Below are positions 11,482 through 48,801 of a stretch of 64,000 nt of DNA, piece after piece. Positions within the stretch are counted from its first letter, which is position 1. The number at the start of each line of letters is the position of its first letter. This DNA comes from Flavobacterium sp. Lineage in GTDB: Bacteria > Bacteroidota > Bacteroidia > Flavobacteriales > Flavobacteriaceae. Location: contig OZ260109.1 in the NCBI GenBank assembly GCA_965284675.1, positions 3,257,167 to 3,321,166 of the forward strand, in the 5' to 3' direction. Below the pieces are notes generated by a model. The model was not told the DNA's origin. It did no database searches and saw only the letters and a program-made list of their open reading frames with translations. The position numbers and the translations under genes were made by a program.

Positions 11482-11515
11482 AAACCCCAACTTAAGCAAT
11501 TGAGTTGGGGTTTTT
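11482..11515 (+). terminator. pnp terminator (copy 1 of a duplicated hairpin)
   Basis: AAACCCCAACTTAA-GCAA-TTGAGTTGGGGTTTT. Confidence 0.85.
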
Positions 11516-11588
11516 AATTTTATTTCGATTTCAAGGCAACCTTTTTAACTTTTTTTCAACTACTATATACAACCCAACAAAAACTGCT

Positions 11589-12878
11589 ATGAAAAAGAAA
11601 AATATTACGTTACTATTTGGCATGCTATTCCTTTTATTTGGAACAAACAGTTGCACCGATTTAGACGATAATGAGCCTGTCAATCTTACCCGAGAAACCA
11701 TCAAAAAAGATTCTGAGTTGTATAATTTATTGGAAGCGGTGGTGAATCGAGGAGATGACCCAATTGAAAACACGGTGTGTATTGATTTTATTTATCCGTT
11801 TAAATTATTCATTTACGATGCCAATTTAGTTCCGCAAGGTGAAGTAATTTTAGGAGGAGACGATCAGTTCAGTTCTTTTTTAGCCCAGTTACCCAGCAAT
11901 CAGTCCATAAGCATCAGCTATCCGATACAAACCACCTTACCCGACGGAACCATTTTTAGTGTTGACTCGGATGCCGAACTAAAAATTGCTATCGATTCGT
12001 GTTCAAGAGAAGATATTATTAGTTATTGTAGTGGTTTATTTGGTATACCACAAGGAAGTTGTGTTTGGGAAGTTCCTTATATTGAAGGAATAAACAACGA
12101 GTTTGCTGGAGCAACTTTCACAGCGGATGGAGCAGGAACCATAACGCTCCACCATCTCAATACCACTTATGACGGGACGTGGGTGTTTTTGTTTGTAAAT
12201 GATGAATTACACCTAAACATTAACCTTTCGGGAACTTCAGCAACGGTTCAAGACTGGAATTATAATTTTAAAGTCACCACATTTACTGGAGAATTATTTG
12301 AACTCCAAACACCAACAATCACACGAATACTAGTAAAAGATTGTTCGGGTTTACTGTCATACACTATCGGGCAAACCGGACCAACTGGCGGGATAATTGC
12401 CTATGACAAAGGGGAATTTACTCACGGATGGCGCTATATCGAAGTTGCACCCACTGATGCTGTAATTGAAGAATGGGGTTGCATGAGTGAATCGATTACC
12501 AACGCACTCTACGATCAAATTGGAACCGGATATCAAAATTCTGTAGCCATTTCGAACCATCACAATGAAATGATAAATTATTTTATAAATCCAAGTGTTT
12601 GTAGCGCTCTTAACAACGGAACTGTCTCGGCTAAAACAGCTCTGAATCAAATCATCGAGTTTAAAAAAGATTGGTGTATTCCTTCTCTAGACGAACTACA
12701 ATTAGTGTATGATAACCTTCACCTTGCCAATGTCGGTAATTTTGAAGCTGTAAGTTATTGGAGTTCATCGGAAGAAAGCACCTCAAAAGCCAAATGTATT
12801 AATTTCGGTACTGGCCAAAATATCAGCTTAGACAAAAATTCTGCTGCTGTAAAAACTAGATTAATTCGCTTTTTTTAA
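11589..12878 (+). CDS. Lipoprotein with C-terminal DUF1566/Lcl-like domain
   Basis: ATG 11589, lipobox GTNSC then TDLDD; C-terminal YTIGQTGPTGGIIAY...YIEVAP...DWCIPSLDEL...YWSSSE...RLIRFF matches the DUF1566 pattern. Confidence 0.75.
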   Translation: MKKKNITLLFGMLFLLFGTNSCTDLDDNEPVNLTRETIKKDSELYNLLEAVVNRGDDPIENTVCIDFIYPFKLFIYDANLVPQGEVILGGDDQFSSFLAQLPSNQSISISYPIQTTLPDGTIFSVDSDAELKIAIDSCSREDIISYCSGLFGIPQGSCVWEVPYIEGINNEFAGATFTADGAGTITLHHLNTTYDGTWVFLFVNDELHLNINLSGTSATVQDWNYNFKVTTFTGELFELQTPTITRILVKDCSGLLSYTIGQTGPTGGIIAYDKGEFTHGWRYIEVAPTDAVIEEWGCMSESITNALYDQIGTGYQNSVAISNHHNEMINYFINPSVCSALNNGTVSAKTALNQIIEFKKDWCIPSLDELQLVYDNLHLANVGNFEAVSYWSSSEESTSKAKCINFGTGQNISLDKNSAAVKTRLIRFF

Positions 12879-12890
12879 CATCCCATTCAT

Positions 12891-13439
12891 TTGAATTTAC
12901 AGGAAATAATAGAAGGTTGTATCAAAAATAATCGAACGCACCAAAAAGCGCTCTACACACACTATGAAAAAATCTTGTTCAATCTGAGTTTGAAATATTG
13001 CGCCAACAGTCAAGAAGCTGAAGATAATCTACACGATACTTTTATTGAAATCTATTCCAATATAAAAAAATTTAAAGGTAATGGCTCTTTTGAAGGCTGG
13101 ATGAAAAAAATTGCAATCCACAAAGCCATTTCGAAATTTAAATCATCCCTACCAAACAAGCCATTAGATACCATTATCTATCCGGTTTTAGATGATGAAA
13201 TTGAACTAGATTCTGAAGGATGTACTTTGGATTTTCTACTTAAATTAATACAAGAATTGCCCAATCAATATCGCCTTGTATTCAATTTATACGAATTAGA
13301 CGATTATTCGCACAAAGATATCTCACAGCTATTAGGTATATCCGAAGGAACCTCAAAATCAAATTTACACAAAGCCAAATTGATTTTAAAAAATAAGATA
13401 AACGAAGCCACACCCAGAAAACTCAAAAATGGAATCTAA
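12891..13439 (+). CDS. ECF RNA polymerase sigma factor
   Basis: QKALYTHY, EAEDNLHD, SFEGWMKKIA (region 2); LPNQYRLVFNLY..YSHKDISQLLGISEGTSKSNLHKAK (region 4.2). Confidence 0.92.
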   Translation: MNLQEIIEGCIKNNRTHQKALYTHYEKILFNLSLKYCANSQEAEDNLHDTFIEIYSNIKKFKGNGSFEGWMKKIAIHKAISKFKSSLPNKPLDTIIYPVLDDEIELDSEGCTLDFLLKLIQELPNQYRLVFNLYELDDYSHKDISQLLGISEGTSKSNLHKAKLILKNKINEATPRKLKNGI

Positions 13440-14862
13440 AAAAAACATAGGAAAGTTGTTTAGAGAAAATCTAGAGCAATTAGATTATACTCCATCCACC
13501 AAGGTTTGGGAGCAAATCGAGTTGGATTTAGAGAAGAAAGAACGAAAAAGAAGATTTTTTCTTTGGTTCTTTTTTGGAGCTATTTTGTGTGGACTTCTGG
13601 TTGGCGGTGGTTATGCATTTTTAAGTGATACTACTACATTCATTACTAAAGAGGTTAAAGAAAATAGTTTGTCAACTGGAAAAACAAAAAGTGATTCCAT
13701 GTTTGTAACTCAAGATGAAGAAGACAAAAACAATCCTTTAAAAAAATCAATTGTAGACGGCAATTCTGAGGTAACCTCTGTAGAACAGAACCCTCAAACC
13801 CACTCCTCGGAACAAAAAAACTCTACTAATTCTTTGGGCAAACAACAAAAAACCACTTCGAACAAAATACAAACCAATTTAAAAAATAAAACAGCAGCCT
13901 ACAAAAAGAAACTATCATCCAAAAATGAAGATACTGTTGAATTGTCTAGTTCTTATGTGAAAAATCAAAGAGAATCATCCCAAACCAACTCTGAATCAAC
14001 GAAAGAGAGCACCATTAACAAATTAATTGATACCGAAAATAATATAGGTAACCCAAACAGCGATGTTCTTGATGAAGTGGTAAAAAAGTCTGCAATTGAT
14101 TCACTGATTGCGACTACAAATGATGTTACAAAAAACAAAGAAATAGACACCGAAGAAAAAGATTCATTACCACTTAAAAAAACCGAAATCGAAACCAAAG
14201 AAAAAGATGATGAAATAGTAATTGCACCCTATTACGGACTAAACTACGGTAGCTATTTTGGTGAATTTAACGCCCTATCAAACAATCGAATCCTTCAAAA
14301 AAACACCGAAACAAACTCTGCCTATGGCATTTTAATTCGATGGATGTTGGGCAATAAATTAGGAATTCAGACCGGAGTTGGAAAAATAAACAGTCGTTAC
14401 AGCACAACCGTTGAAAAAACGGGACCATCGTTCGTCAACAACCAGAATGTGGCAACTGAACCATCCGTAAACGAATTGAACACTATGTTCGCAAACGAAA
14501 CCAAAGTAAAATTAACCCTAGAAAGCACATACATTGAAGTTCCTCTCGAAGCTTATTTTGTACTTAGAGATAAAAAACTTGGCTTGGCAACAACTTTCGG
14601 TTTAAGCATACTGCTTGAAGATAAAAATAGTGTTTTCGCCGAATCTGAGTTCGTTCAAAAAATGAGGATCGGAACCCTAACCACTCTTGCTCCTACAAGT
14701 GCAACCCTAAATGCGAAAGTGAATTTATTTTATAAAATCACACCTTCGCTTCAAGTAGATCTTTATCCAACTTTTCAATACCAAGTTATGGGTCACACCG
14801 ATTCATCCAACTATTCCAACTTCTTCTTATCGGTAAGAACAGGTTTGAGTTACAAATTTTAG
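13429..14862 (+). CDS. Putative dual-membrane-spanning anti-sigma factor: N-terminal anti-sigma domain, TM helix, disordered linker, C-terminal OM beta-barrel
   Basis: Overlaps the ECF stop. aa 1-42 helical (TPSTKVWEQIELDL), KKERKRR then a hydrophobic helix at 43-65, an ~195-aa S/T/K/E/N linker, then alternating strands ending GLSYKF. Confidence 0.75.
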   Translation: MESKKNIGKLFRENLEQLDYTPSTKVWEQIELDLEKKERKRRFFLWFFFGAILCGLLVGGGYAFLSDTTTFITKEVKENSLSTGKTKSDSMFVTQDEEDKNNPLKKSIVDGNSEVTSVEQNPQTHSSEQKNSTNSLGKQQKTTSNKIQTNLKNKTAAYKKKLSSKNEDTVELSSSYVKNQRESSQTNSESTKESTINKLIDTENNIGNPNSDVLDEVVKKSAIDSLIATTNDVTKNKEIDTEEKDSLPLKKTEIETKEKDDEIVIAPYYGLNYGSYFGEFNALSNNRILQKNTETNSAYGILIRWMLGNKLGIQTGVGKINSRYSTTVEKTGPSFVNNQNVATEPSVNELNTMFANETKVKLTLESTYIEVPLEAYFVLRDKKLGLATTFGLSILLEDKNSVFAESEFVQKMRIGTLTTLAPTSATLNAKVNLFYKITPSLQVDLYPTFQYQVMGHTDSSNYSNFFLSVRTGLSYKF

Positions 14863-14931: not shown

Positions 14932-15546
14932 CTAAAAATTCCAACTTCCTGACACACCAAAATTTATTGAAGAAGCACCAAAATTTTCCTCCGATTTAGA
15001 ATTAAACAAACCATAAGGAGCATACTGATAATTACAATGCACGCCAAAACCATGCACCATAACCTTTATTCCTTGAGAAAGCGCGATGGTACTAAGAGTC
15101 GGTTTTAAATCTATTTCATCAAAAGAATCTTCATCAGGTTTACTGTAATGTAAGTATTTCCAACCGATGCCCGAATTCGATTCAATGTGAAAATTTTCGT
15201 TTTTGGAACGATACAAAAATCGCGTATACCTCAAGCCTAGCAAAAAGGCAGATTTACTTCCGTCCAATAAAATCGTCCCATCATTGAACTCATACTCGAC
15301 CGCTCGACCTTTTACTATTCCGCTTAACTCAGCTCCAAAATCTATAAACTGACGCTTTGCAATTTTGGTTCTCATGTAAAATGCAGTGGTAATCGAGCTT
15401 TCATATTTGTCAGATAGTTGCCCTAGCGGAATTCCAAAACTGACTTCGACTATATTCCTTTTATACAAGTCAATTTTTGGATAAACGATGGTGTCTTGTG
15501 CATTCATTTGAAATGCAATCAAAACCATAAAATAGATTTTATTCAT
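14932..15546 (-). CDS. Hypothetical small outer-membrane beta-barrel protein
   Basis: Short signal peptide (..QMNA/QD), amphipathic strands, C-terminal FGVSGSWNF. Confidence 0.6.
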   Translation of the reverse strand: MNKIYFMVLIAFQMNAQDTIVYPKIDLYKRNIVEVSFGIPLGQLSDKYESSITTAFYMRTKIAKRQFIDFGAELSGIVKGRAVEYEFNDGTILLDGSKSAFLLGLRYTRFLYRSKNENFHIESNSGIGWKYLHYSKPDEDSFDEIDLKPTLSTIALSQGIKVMVHGFGVHCNYQYAPYGLFNSKSEENFGASSINFGVSGSWNF

Positions 15547-46159: not shown

Positions 46160-46253
46160 GTTTGGATTTTTAGATTTTTAGATTTTTAGAAACCTAAAAA
46201 ATGAATGTCGGTAAAATTACACATTCAGAATTTAAAATTTAAAATTTAAAATA

Positions 46254-46290
46254 AAAAAAAGGCGTTTCATTGCTGAAACACCTTTTTACA
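46254..46290 (-). terminator. Terminator after the ECF cassette
   Basis: Minus strand AAAAAGGTGTTTCA-GCAA-TGAAACGCCTTTTTTT. Confidence 0.8.
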
Positions 46291-46314: not shown

Positions 46315-47361
46315 TTAATTCCAATCAAATCGAACACCTAACGATATGTTATTTTGATCTACGGCGTTGTCTTTAAACAACGGATTGATATCGTATTTAA
46401 CGTACAAACTCGTTTCTCCATGTCCGAAATAAGCACTCAATCCGTATGTCCAATCGTTTACGTTCCAATTTCCTTTTTGTCGTTCGTTGATGCGGTAACC
46501 ATCAACTTCATACGACAAAAATTGTTTTGAATTGGTGTTGTATCCTACATAACCTCCTATTCCGAATCGGAAACCCCTGTGGCTGTTGAAGATTTTATCT
46601 CCGTCGGCGTTAGTTTTATTTTTCGTAAAATCGAACTCCAAGTGAAGCGGCACCGTAACATACACATTTTTAAAATAGGTGTCTTTTTTTCTTAAATGCG
46701 TTGGAAACGTTGCCAATCCGGTTTGATCTCCATTTACTACGAAATAGCGGTTATCGGTAGCATTTAAGTGATTGTACATCCATGAAAAACCGTATTTTAA
46801 ATGCAATAAATTACTGTTTTTAGACAAGCGGTAGTTGCTGGTTAATCCCCATTCGTAAAAAGTCGAGCGCAAGTATCTGAAATCAGAATTGGCAATCGAA
46901 CCATTGGTCACTAAATTATTTGCTCCAAAGGCAAAAACAACTTGCGTAGTGGTTCTCGATTCACCTTTAACTCTGCGGATCGAATCGTTTGTATTTTTCC
47001 AACCCAAATCTAATGTATAGGTTCGATCTTTTGAAACTTCTTTGATTTTTCCATCAACTTTTTGTTGTACTAAATCGTTCAATTCGGCTTGTGCAACGGC
47101 CACTTTATTTTCGATAATGGTTGCTCTTGCTTCGGCTAATTTTTGTTTTTTCTCATCAGCTTGAGCAGTAGTAAGTGAACCGTTTTCGAGTTGTTTGTTT
47201 ACTTCCTCAACCTCTATTTTTAAGGCTTCTTTTTCTTCTTTTGTGATTTTTTCAATCTTTTCGGCTATGGCTTTTGCTCGTGATTCGAACGTGTCTTGCG
47301 CATTCATTTTTGCAGCCATTAGGCAGACTACAACGGCTAAATAAAGGGTAAAATTTCTCAT
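46315..47361 (-). CDS. Outer-membrane beta-barrel protein with N-terminal coiled coil
   Basis: Signal peptide to ..MNA/Q, ~80-aa E/K-rich helical segment, then strands (YVTVPLHLEFDF, FRFGIGGYVG) ending ISLGVRFDWN. Confidence 0.75.
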   Translation of the reverse strand: MRNFTLYLAVVVCLMAAKMNAQDTFESRAKAIAEKIEKITKEEKEALKIEVEEVNKQLENGSLTTAQADEKKQKLAEARATIIENKVAVAQAELNDLVQQKVDGKIKEVSKDRTYTLDLGWKNTNDSIRRVKGESRTTTQVVFAFGANNLVTNGSIANSDFRYLRSTFYEWGLTSNYRLSKNSNLLHLKYGFSWMYNHLNATDNRYFVVNGDQTGLATFPTHLRKKDTYFKNVYVTVPLHLEFDFTKNKTNADGDKIFNSHRGFRFGIGGYVGYNTNSKQFLSYEVDGYRINERQKGNWNVNDWTYGLSAYFGHGETSLYVKYDINPLFKDNAVDQNNISLGVRFDWN

Positions 47362-47390
47362 GATATTTGATTTTTGATTAATGATGTGTA

Positions 47391-48161
47391 CTAGTCTAAA
47401 TTATTTCTATTGGTAACGGCGACTTTTACTTCTTTGTAGTTTTTGCTCACCGTTTTGAAGACTTTTTCTCGAAAAGTCAGTTCTAATTCGCCATCTACTT
47501 GCGAAAGCAAACTGTTTGCGCTGACAGTAACTTTCGATGGTTTTCGGTTCAACTCGCTAAGGGCAATTACTTCTTTGTTTTCTGAATTGATTTGGTTCGA
47601 TAAAACTGGAGTTGGATTTTTACTTTCGTTGCTAACTTTGTTTTCGGCAATTACTTCTTGATTTTGGATTGGACTATTTTTTTGTTGATTAGGCATCGAT
47701 TTTTGGGCAACTGATGAATTGGATTTGATGATTGAAACTCGGTTGTTGGTTTTCGGTTGGCGGTTGTCAGTTGTCGGTTGTTGGTTTTCGGTTGTTGGTT
47801 GAGGCGTATTTTCTTCAACTTGAACTAACGGCTGCATCTCTTGGTTGAAAGTTGGATTATTTTCTATTTTTTCTGATGAATGGGTTGCAGAATCTTTGAG
47901 TACTTCTTGCGTTACCACAGTTGTATTAGGCGTGATTTCTGAAGTATTTTGATTGAAAAAAAACAAACCAGCAGTTACGAACACCAAAATGCTTGCAGCA
48001 ATCCCGAAGCGTCGGGACAACCAGCCAAAAGAACGCTTTGTTTTTTTTTCTTCGGCAACTGAAAGCATGGCGTCCAATCGATCCCAAGATTTTTCGCTGG
48101 GTTGGATTTCTCGAGAGTTGATTTGCTCTCGGATTTGTTTTTCAAATTTATTCGGTTCCAT
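47391..48161 (-). CDS. Putative anti-sigma factor (cytoplasmic domain, TM helix, disordered linker, helical C-terminus)
   Basis: QPSEKSWDRLDAML parallels TPSTKVWEQIELDL of the 13429 protein; basic patch then TM IAASILVFVTAGLFFF; overlaps the ECF stop. Confidence 0.7.
   Translation of the reverse strand: MEPNKFEKQIREQINSREIQPSEKSWDRLDAMLSVAEEKKTKRSFGWLSRRFGIAASILVFVTAGLFFFNQNTSEITPNTTVVTQEVLKDSATHSSEKIENNPTFNQEMQPLVQVEENTPQPTTENQQPTTDNRQPKTNNRVSIIKSNSSVAQKSMPNQQKNSPIQNQEVIAENKVSNESKNPTPVLSNQINSENKEVIALSELNRKPSKVTVSANSLLSQVDGELELTFREKVFKTVSKNYKEVKVAVTNRNNLD
47739..47801 (-). repeat. Nine in-frame heptamer repeats inside the anti-sigma linker
   Basis: (C/A)AAC(C/T)(A/G)(A/C) x9 = 63 bp, encoding QPTTENQ-QPTTDNR-QPKTNNR. 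Confidence 0.85.
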
Positions 48162-48708
48162 TAGAGTAATTTTTTAACTTGTTAATTTGTTCTTGCAACA
48201 TTTTTCTAGCGTGAGAAAGTTGCGATTTGGACGTTCCTTCATTGATTCCTAACATTGCTCCAATTTCGTGGTGTTTGAATCCTTCTATCGCATATAAATT
48301 GAACACCATTTTATATCCATCGGGCAAACCATCGATTAAGGTTTGAATATCTTCTACCGAAAATTTGCTTTCGATGTTATTGAAGCTTTCCTCAAAATAC
48401 GTTTCATCTTCAATAAAGGTTACTTTTTTCTGAACTCGGAGGAACGAAATACATTCGTTGATCATAATTCTTCTCACCCAACCTTCAAAACTTCCTTTGT
48501 GTTCAAAATTTTTCAAACTTGTAAACACTTTCATAAAAGCCGTAATCATAACATCTTCCGCCTGATGTAAGTCTTTTATATACTGACGGCAAACACTTAA
48601 CATTTTAGGAGCGAATTTGGAATAGATCTTTTGTTGTGCATGACGATTGTTCTCGACAGCCAGTTCGATTAATTCTTTTTCTTCTTGATGTAAGTTAATA
48701 ACCTTCAT
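48148..48708 (-). CDS. ECF RNA polymerase sigma factor
   Basis: AQQKIYSKF, QAEDVMITAF, SFEGWVRRIM; LPDGYKMVFNLYAIEGFKHHEIGAMLGINEGTSKSQLSHARK. Confidence 0.93.
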   Translation of the reverse strand: MKVINLHQEEKELIELAVENNRHAQQKIYSKFAPKMLSVCRQYIKDLHQAEDVMITAFMKVFTSLKNFEHKGSFEGWVRRIMINECISFLRVQKKVTFIEDETYFEESFNNIESKFSVEDIQTLIDGLPDGYKMVFNLYAIEGFKHHEIGAMLGINEGTSKSQLSHARKMLQEQINKLKNYSNGTE

Positions 48709-48772
48709 TTTTAGACTTCTTAGATCGTTGGATTTTTAGAATCTTAGATTTTACATTCGGTGTTCTATTAGC

Positions 48773-48801
48773 ATAGACGAGAATGGTTTGAAAAGGGTTG
48801 C
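48773..48801 (-). promoter_or_regulatory. Putative ECF-dependent autoregulatory promoter
   Basis: GCAACC-N16-CGTCTAT about 65 nt upstream of the ECF start. Confidence 0.65.

Follow-up and report, generated by a model that had tools for sequence, protein, structure and literature searches.

The DNA analysed here, referred to as the window, is a stretch of 64,000 nucleotides from a Flavobacterium sp. (contig OZ260109.1). Its minus strand carries three co-oriented genes, which encode, in the order of transcription, an extracytoplasmic function (ECF) sigma factor, an anti-sigma-like protein and an outer-membrane beta-barrel protein. We propose that the three genes make up one autoregulated envelope-signalling operon of the ECF21 type, in which the anti-sigma-like protein would dock to the barrel protein and form a non-covalent link across the envelope. 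We estimate the probability of this reading at about 0.55. The elements of the operon are as follows (lengths in amino acids, aa; models computed with AlphaFold2, AF2).

48774-48801, minus strand: ECF-type promoter before the sigma gene (GCAACC, 16-nt spacer, CGTCTA).
48148-48708, minus strand: ECF sigma factor gene, 186 aa, matching Pfam Sigma70_r2 and Sigma70_r4_2 and TIGR02937.
47391-48161, minus strand: single-pass anti-sigma-like gene, 256 aa (AF2 and alignment).
46315-47361, minus strand: gene for the outer-membrane barrel protein, 348 aa, with signal peptide, helical hairpin and beta-barrel (AF2, Foldseek).
46256-46287, minus strand: intrinsic terminator-like hairpin and T-run at the end of the operon (terminator scan and sequence).

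The anti-sigma-like gene begins 14 nt before the sigma gene ends, the ATG of the barrel gene lies 29 nt past the anti-sigma stop in another reading frame, and the single terminator is located 3' of the barrel gene. This layout agreed in coordinates and features with the original prediction, which had described an ECF gene, a 256-aa transmembrane (TM) protein with a linker, and a separate gene for a protein with a signal peptide, a coil and a barrel. Its further claim that the last two genes are 29 nt apart, with intact starts and no frameshift, also held: they were separate in 85/85 related loci, with a spacer of mostly 22-60 nt. It is scarcely credible that the arrangement is an artefact, i.e. 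a frameshifted or pseudogenised gene of the Dma type (an anti-sigma factor fused to a barrel, see below) or a set of mis-called open reading frames (ORFs). A broken Dma gene was ruled out by the intact ORFs, their different frames and the recurrence of the same layout in the 85 loci. The anti-sigma gene has a proper stop and the barrel gene a signal peptide behind its ATG, each protein has thousands of full-length homologues, and metatranscriptome contigs with an exact match fall inside the barrel gene of the window. Other contigs cover related sigma genes, and among those matching the operon genes none spanned a gene junction. Nothing in the window spoke for an artefact; the one case that did so was a metagenomic relative (L085:3320-3978), whose anti-sigma gene is broken into ORFs of 167 and 52 aa overlapping by 4 nt, which is a frameshift or an assembly error.

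Evidence that the three genes belong together came from their conservation. A genome scan with the barrel alignment gave 80 best loci, all of them from Flavobacterium, and the sigma-anti-sigma-barrel order was found in every one of these that had enough upstream DNA. Most of them also shared the flanking genes, for polyprenyl synthase and DnaG. Because this could reflect mere synteny at the level of the genus, we looked up nine distant barrel homologues (27-51% identity), the contexts being taken from contigs that encode divergent members of the family, including Pustulibacterium marinum, a metagenome-assembled genome (MAG) of the Weeksellaceae and a Flavobacteriia MAG. The trio was kept in 9/9, always as a 184-191-aa ECF sigma, then a 218-262-aa protein without Pfam match, then the barrel gene; the middle gene is interrupted in one of the nine. 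The flanking genes were unrelated in 8/9, the Flavobacterium flanks being retained in P0250. These data support the view that the sigma/anti-sigma pair is regularly accompanied by the barrel gene, whatever the genomic context, and that the operon is conserved in the Flavobacteriales. The link postulated in the original prediction presupposes such a conserved neighbourhood, and both the Flavobacterium loci and the nine distant ones display it. In one distant locus (L093:5534-6781), the next gene after the barrel gene encodes a 415-aa retropepsin-like aspartyl protease (PF13650/PF13975), which could be the site-1 protease unless its position is a coincidence.

To locate the conserved parts of the two envelope proteins, we calculated the mean identity of each segment to the window protein over 85 anti-sigma/barrel pairs. 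The anti-sigma-like protein, for which no Pfam family was found, comprises four segments.

48027-48161, minus strand: cytoplasmic N-terminal region, aa 1-45, two short helices; 68% mean identity (85 loci).
47952-48008, minus strand: TM helix, about aa 52-70 (AF2), hydrophobic stretch GIAASILVFVTAGLFFF; 49% mean identity.
47541-47951, minus strand: disordered low-complexity periplasmic linker, aa 71-207, pLDDT (predicted local distance difference test) <50; 17% mean identity, many indels.
47403-47540, minus strand: conserved C-terminal periplasmic module, aa 208-253, a candidate docking element; 61% mean identity.

The AF2 model of this protein, built with the family alignment, had a mean pLDDT of 48 and was usable for secondary structure only. 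It placed helices at residues 5-15 and 23-38, the TM helix at 52-69, disorder at 70-214 and a C-terminal helix at 215-252. Neither Pfam nor the model indicated a sensor domain in the periplasmic part. The C-terminal module follows the pattern KV.V.ANSLLSQVDGELE.TFREKV..V.KNYKEVKVA..NRN and can be recognised in distant genera as ..SLL....E.E ... (A/V)..RN(Y). The linker is rich in Q, P, T and N. Within it, a degenerate tandem Q-P-T-T-(E/D)-N repeat is encoded at 47745-47830 (minus strand), with a copy number that varies among Flavobacterium homologues; the terminator scan also marked this DNA on the plus strand, probably because of the repeat.

The barrel protein is made up of the following parts.

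47299-47361, minus strand: signal peptide, aa 1-21, ending in AKMNA/QDT (the slash marks the cleavage site); sequence, with a conserved A-Q-E/D-T junction.
47056-47289, minus strand: periplasmic helical hairpin or coiled coil, aa 25-59 and 65-102, AF2 pLDDT 71-83; 64% mean identity.
46318-46962, minus strand: beta-barrel domain, aa 134-348, AF2 strands at 137-347 and Foldseek; 64% mean identity.

Its AF2 model (pLDDT 73) showed a signal peptide (1-21/23), two hairpin helices (25-59 and 65-102), a loose linker (26% mean identity) and a barrel (137-347), of which the best Foldseek matches were the 8-stranded OmpA, Ail, OmpX, NspA and OprF-N. The first hairpin helix is strongly amphipathic (hydrophobic moment, muH, 1.32; p=0.0035). 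The N-terminal end of 8-stranded barrels of the OmpA/OmpX type is periplasmic, so the hairpin, which sits at the N-terminus of the barrel, is expected in the periplasm. The contrast in identity (61% and 64% vs 17% and 26%) indicates that the C-terminal module and the hairpin are the only conserved periplasmic parts of the two proteins. Both would sit in the same compartment and could meet there. Profile searches of PDB sequences with the anti-sigma and barrel families gave nothing meaningful. Cys13 of the signal peptide (47323-47325, minus strand) is invariant among Flavobacterium homologues; it lacks a canonical lipobox (V/L at -1), and an A-Q cleavage site is found at residues 21/22.

Relatives of the barrel protein vary in what precedes the hairpin. 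All long variants begin with a signal peptide, and several (P0250, P0356, P0343, P0244, P0335, P0379, P0309 and P0314) carry extra periplasmic modules N-terminal to the hairpin, which may be domains of about 130-170 aa, a second copy of the coiled-coil hairpin or stretches rich in proline. An additional 176-aa ORF lies between the anti-sigma and barrel genes in one locus (L086:3286-3816). Pfam matched neither the accessory N-terminal domains nor this ORF. These additions look like an accretion of sensor modules, and modules added at this position are what would be expected of a sensor protein.

The sigma factor is 76-95% identical across its Flavobacterium orthologues. In the fish pathogen F. 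psychrophilum (our locus L038), the orthologue is 81% identical and the flanks are the same. This protein, THC0290_0638, was assigned to ECF21 by ECFfinder (PMC9723704 supplement). The window sigma may thereby be classed, indirectly, as ECF21-type, the assignment being carried over from this 81%-identical orthologue only. A motif of the form CAAC[CT]-N16-CGT[CT] was present in 80/87 orthologous regions upstream of the sigma gene, and the remaining 7, distant loci included, were one base off; the motif is thus kept in 87/87 loci if one mismatch is allowed. The 64-kb window contained GCAACC-N15-18-CGTC a single time, as the operon's own promoter. The presence of a conserved single promoter motif before the sigma gene suggests that the operon is positively autoregulated, in which case the motif would be recognised by the sigma factor that it serves. 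The leaders of the sigma gene (48709-48770, minus strand) and of dnaG (46160-46215, minus strand) both contain repeated TCTAAAAATC / ATCTAA units, and the same kind of repeat occurs in the 5' untranslated region of F. psychrophilum dnaG (PMC9723704 supplement). These repeats may represent an A-rich translation leader.

The F. psychrophilum operon had already been annotated. THC0290_0638 (FP2077) is listed as an ECF21 sigma, THC0290_0639 (FP2076) as a putative anti-sigma and THC0290_0640 (FP2075) as a "putative sensor" (PMC9723704 supplement). The three are listed as a polycistronic operon, located between polyprenyl synthetase and dnaG, whose transcripts rise together (PMC9723704 supplement, Guerin et al. 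2021), the operon being induced by nutrient limitation and less by plasma (PMC9723704 supplement). These genes, of 561, 678 and 1065 nt, are direct orthologues of those in the window, with polyprenyl synthetase upstream and dnaG downstream; the F. psychrophilum locus differs by two extra genes before dnaG. A second F. psychrophilum ECF21 sigma with a 302-aa anti-sigma is also on record (THC0290_1586-1588, THC0290_1653/1654; PMC9723704 supplement), and three-gene units of sigma, anti-sigma and sensor may be a recurrent flavobacterial theme. The sigma/anti-sigma/sensor reading was therefore known and the idea is not wholly new. PMC9723704 gives the trio as an annotation only and describes neither its structure and topology nor an interaction or a relation to Dma. 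New here are the modelled structure of the barrel protein with its hairpin, the conserved C-terminal module of the anti-sigma, the wide distribution of the trio and its independence from its context, the promoter, and an account of how the trio relates to Dma and how it differs from it.

Dma is a family of anti-sigma factors that act on ECF21 sigmas in Bacteroidota. A single polypeptide contains an N-terminal sigma-binding region, one TM segment, a linker that is long and disordered, and, at the C-terminus, an 8-stranded OMP_b-brl_2 barrel; the sigma factors Das1 and Das2 belong to ECF21 (PMC10927553). The family compared here includes Dma1/BT_4721 with Das1, Dma2 with Das2, and Reo-EcfO of B. 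fragilis (PMC10927553). The window itself contains a cassette, called cassette 1, that fits the Dma plan.

12891-13439, plus strand: ECF sigma of cassette 1.
13429-14862, plus strand: Dma-like anti-sigma with a fused C-terminal barrel, 477 aa (the 13429 protein).

The sigma factors of the two cassettes are 32% identical. The 256-aa protein and the 13429 protein matched in BLASTP (E=5e-9), and alignment of the family profiles with hhalign gave a probability of 95.9% (E=5.5e-9) for the N-terminus plus TM segment, residues 7-74 aligning with residues 6-70. These comparisons identify the two N-termini as homologous, and the shared N-terminal motif noticed in the original prediction is therefore real. 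It reads P-S-E-K-S-W-D-R-L in the 256-aa protein and P-S-T-K-V-W-E-Q-I in the 13429 protein; its K is not kept across the family, for which the generalised form is P-S-x3-W-x2-(L/I). By analogy with the work on Reo and Dma1 that is cited in PMC10927553, residues 1-45 are presumed to be the sigma-binding domain. Two genes next to cassette 1 may be mentioned here. A 457-aa putative lipoprotein (11505-12878, plus strand) is encoded 12 nt upstream of its sigma gene and may share its operon, and a convergent gene (14932-15546, minus strand) encodes a secreted protein of 204 aa with the look of a small outer-membrane barrel.

The original prediction had called the minus-strand cassette a split Dma. 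The part of this claim that concerns the N-terminus stood, since it is homologous and the orthologous sigma is classed as ECF21; the part that concerns the barrel did not, as the two barrels were not detectably related by profile and no fused intermediate was met among the homologues and loci compared. Taken literally, a split Dma would have arisen by fission of a fused ancestor; a docking helix would later have been added to the anti-sigma half, and a coiled coil and a signal peptide to the barrel half. Apart from the N-termini and the sigma group, this scenario is favoured by the common order of parts (sigma-binding domain, TM, disordered linker, barrel) and by the occurrence of PF13568 (OMP_b-brl_2) matches in both barrel families. 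The barrel protein of the window did not match PF13568, but 3/22 diverse relatives did (best E=3.5e-10), and a few close relatives have a precomputed match to PF13505. The 13429 protein gave a weak match to PF13568 at residues 269-470 (E=1.8e-4, below the cut-off), and 4/19 of its relatives matched (best E=1.9e-6). The two families thus appear to share the same broad barrel type. Yet when the split-barrel and Dma-like families were aligned with hhalign, the probability was <1%, both at full length and with the barrels only, and the anti-sigma C-terminal module had no counterpart in the Dma-like linker or pre-barrel region (probability ≤0.2%). A 'DSL' resemblance between this module and the Dma-like protein was set aside as a chance similarity on the same hhalign result. 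No fused or intermediate form was found among the best 150 of 802 representatives (2847 barrel homologues), among the best 120 of 2309 anti-sigma homologues (192-269 aa, none barrel-fused) or in the 85 loci, and the long barrel variants all start with signal peptides. The split architecture is already present in both Flavobacteriaceae and Weeksellaceae, which argues that it is old and stable. A literal fission therefore seems quite improbable to us. We read the cassette as a paralogue, an ECF21-type sigma/anti-sigma pair whose barrel is exported separately, and not as a recently fissioned Dma.

Compared with Dma, the trio shares its occurrence in Bacteroidota, a sigma probably of the ECF21 group (as classed for the F. 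psychrophilum orthologue), a short N-terminus with one TM segment that is homologous to the Dma-like protein of the window, a long disordered periplasmic linker, and a small outer-membrane beta-barrel at the far end. It differs in that a gene of its own encodes the barrel, together with a signal peptide and a helical hairpin for the periplasm, in that the anti-sigma ends at aa 256 in a conserved 45-aa module and has no barrel, and in that no single polypeptide crosses both membranes. Our literature search retrieved no report of a Dma counterpart in split form.

On this basis we propose the following mechanism. The sigma factor would be held at the inner membrane by the cytoplasmic N-terminus of the anti-sigma (about 45 aa), a type of region also found in Dma and Reo. 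Some 140 aa of disordered linker would cross the periplasm and present the conserved module (about 45 aa) at the far end, and the barrel protein, exported by means of its own signal peptide, would be inserted in the outer membrane with its hairpin hanging into the periplasm. The module would pack on the hairpin, creating a non-covalent trans-envelope link that would be the functional equivalent of the covalent link in Dma, with a topology like that of FecR-FecA. A disturbance of the outer membrane or of the barrel would loosen this contact and open the anti-sigma to regulated proteolysis. The sigma factor thus freed would transcribe its own operon from CAACC-N16-CGTCTA, and a further regulon. 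A more specific version, which we advance tentatively and with more doubt than conviction, is that Flavobacteriales possess a two-protein, non-covalent Dma, in which the module and the hairpin form a helical bundle. The signal would then be that this tether is reversibly lost when the outer membrane is damaged, when the membranes are pulled apart mechanically or when a ligand binds the barrel or its accessory domains.

Several observations weigh against the proposed link. The C-terminal helix of the anti-sigma was modelled with a pLDDT of only ~55, and the hydrophobic moment of residues 215-252 was not above that of shuffled sequences, so that this segment is not significantly amphipathic. The strongest periodicity of the module in the window species was ~172 degrees (KVTVSA, ELELTF, EVKVAVT), which is beta-strand-like. 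In an analysis of mutual information with average product correction (MI-APC) on the 85 pairs (effective number of sequences, Neff, 56), 7 pairs joined the anti-sigma C-terminus to the hairpin where 8.9 were expected; the top pairs of this small sample fell in the two hypervariable linkers and represent alignment and phylogeny noise. The scan for the promoter motif disclosed no regulon member in the 64-kb window beyond the operon itself. Finally, gene linkage alone fits a co-transcribed effector equally well. The short amphipathic C-terminal helix of the original prediction therefore survived in part: a helix was predicted, with low confidence, in what is a module of about 45 aa, and its amphipathicity was not confirmed. 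In distant relatives the module looks like two helices with a break, and it probably consists of two helices, not of a single short amphipathic one. Docking of a strand type to the barrel may also be possible.

These points bear on another interpretation, in which the barrel gene is co-transcribed as the first target of the sigma factor and its product is an outer-membrane or envelope-stress protein with an arm like that of Skp/OmpH. The anti-sigma module would then sense something else, e.g. peptidoglycan, a protease or the membrane. Genes for the handling of outer-membrane proteins are common targets of envelope-stress ECF sigmas, as is established for sigma-E, and a barrel gene driven by such a sigma would be in keeping with this. 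What speaks for a partnership is gene linkage and conservation, and co-variation gave no signal. The K/E-rich helical hairpin indeed resembles the arm of Skp/OmpH, and some databases label relatives of the barrel protein 'OmpH family outer membrane protein'. The match to OmpH (PF03938) on residues 19-117 was, however, far below the Pfam cut-off (16.6 vs 32.4 bits, E=0.0096) and only 1/22 relatives matched; furthermore, Skp is a soluble trimer that lacks a transmembrane barrel. The anti-sigma to barrel order and the tight spacing are kept across families and contexts, which would be unusual for a mere target, the C-terminal module is the sole conserved element in the periplasmic part of the anti-sigma, and the curators of the F. 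psychrophilum genome chose 'putative sensor'. We therefore regard the output-only role of the barrel as rather unlikely, and retain the docked trans-envelope link as our preferred reading.

Two other known systems resemble the proposed one. FecI-FecR-FecA, too, divides the task among an ECF sigma, an anti-sigma with one TM segment and a barrel with an N-terminal periplasmic extension, each a protein of its own, and the periplasmic C-terminus of its anti-sigma meets this extension, as we propose for the window cassette. The trio has, however, neither a FecR domain nor a TonB-dependent 22-stranded transducer nor the fold of the signalling domain, and a search with Pfam and NCBIfam found no match to the FecR and TonB-dependent receptor families in its three proteins. 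Its barrel is small and OmpA/OmpX-like, and its periplasmic elements are helical. The SigX-CfrX-CmpX-OprF system of P. aeruginosa (ECF102) is likewise an ECF operon in which a putative anti-sigma is combined with a barrel protein of the outer membrane, OprF. The latter has an N-terminal OmpA-like small barrel domain and is implicated in the regulation of SigX, as summarised in PMC7826278. This system differs by its ECF group and phylum and by its seven-gene operon with a mechanosensitive channel, and OprF by a C-terminal peptidoglycan-binding domain, as against the N-terminal coiled coil of the window protein.

The finding is thus a conserved ECF21/Dma-type system with its barrel in trans, partly anticipated by annotation, for which the key mechanism is proposed. 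If the barrel is nothing but a co-transcribed target, this is an ordinary ECF operon. The system occurs in the fish pathogen F. psychrophilum and, by similarity, also in gliding model flavobacteria, and the conserved promoter motif provides an immediate reporter and a handle on the regulon. Since both ECF21 architectures are present in one genome, within a single 64-kb window, a split system would make it possible to take the link across the envelope apart and study its components. Provided that a sigma and an anti-sigma N-terminus of this type do work with a separate barrel, there is a widespread sister system (~2,800 barrel and ~2,300 anti-sigma homologues) in which genetics could sever the link and experiments could map the interface and probe the signal.

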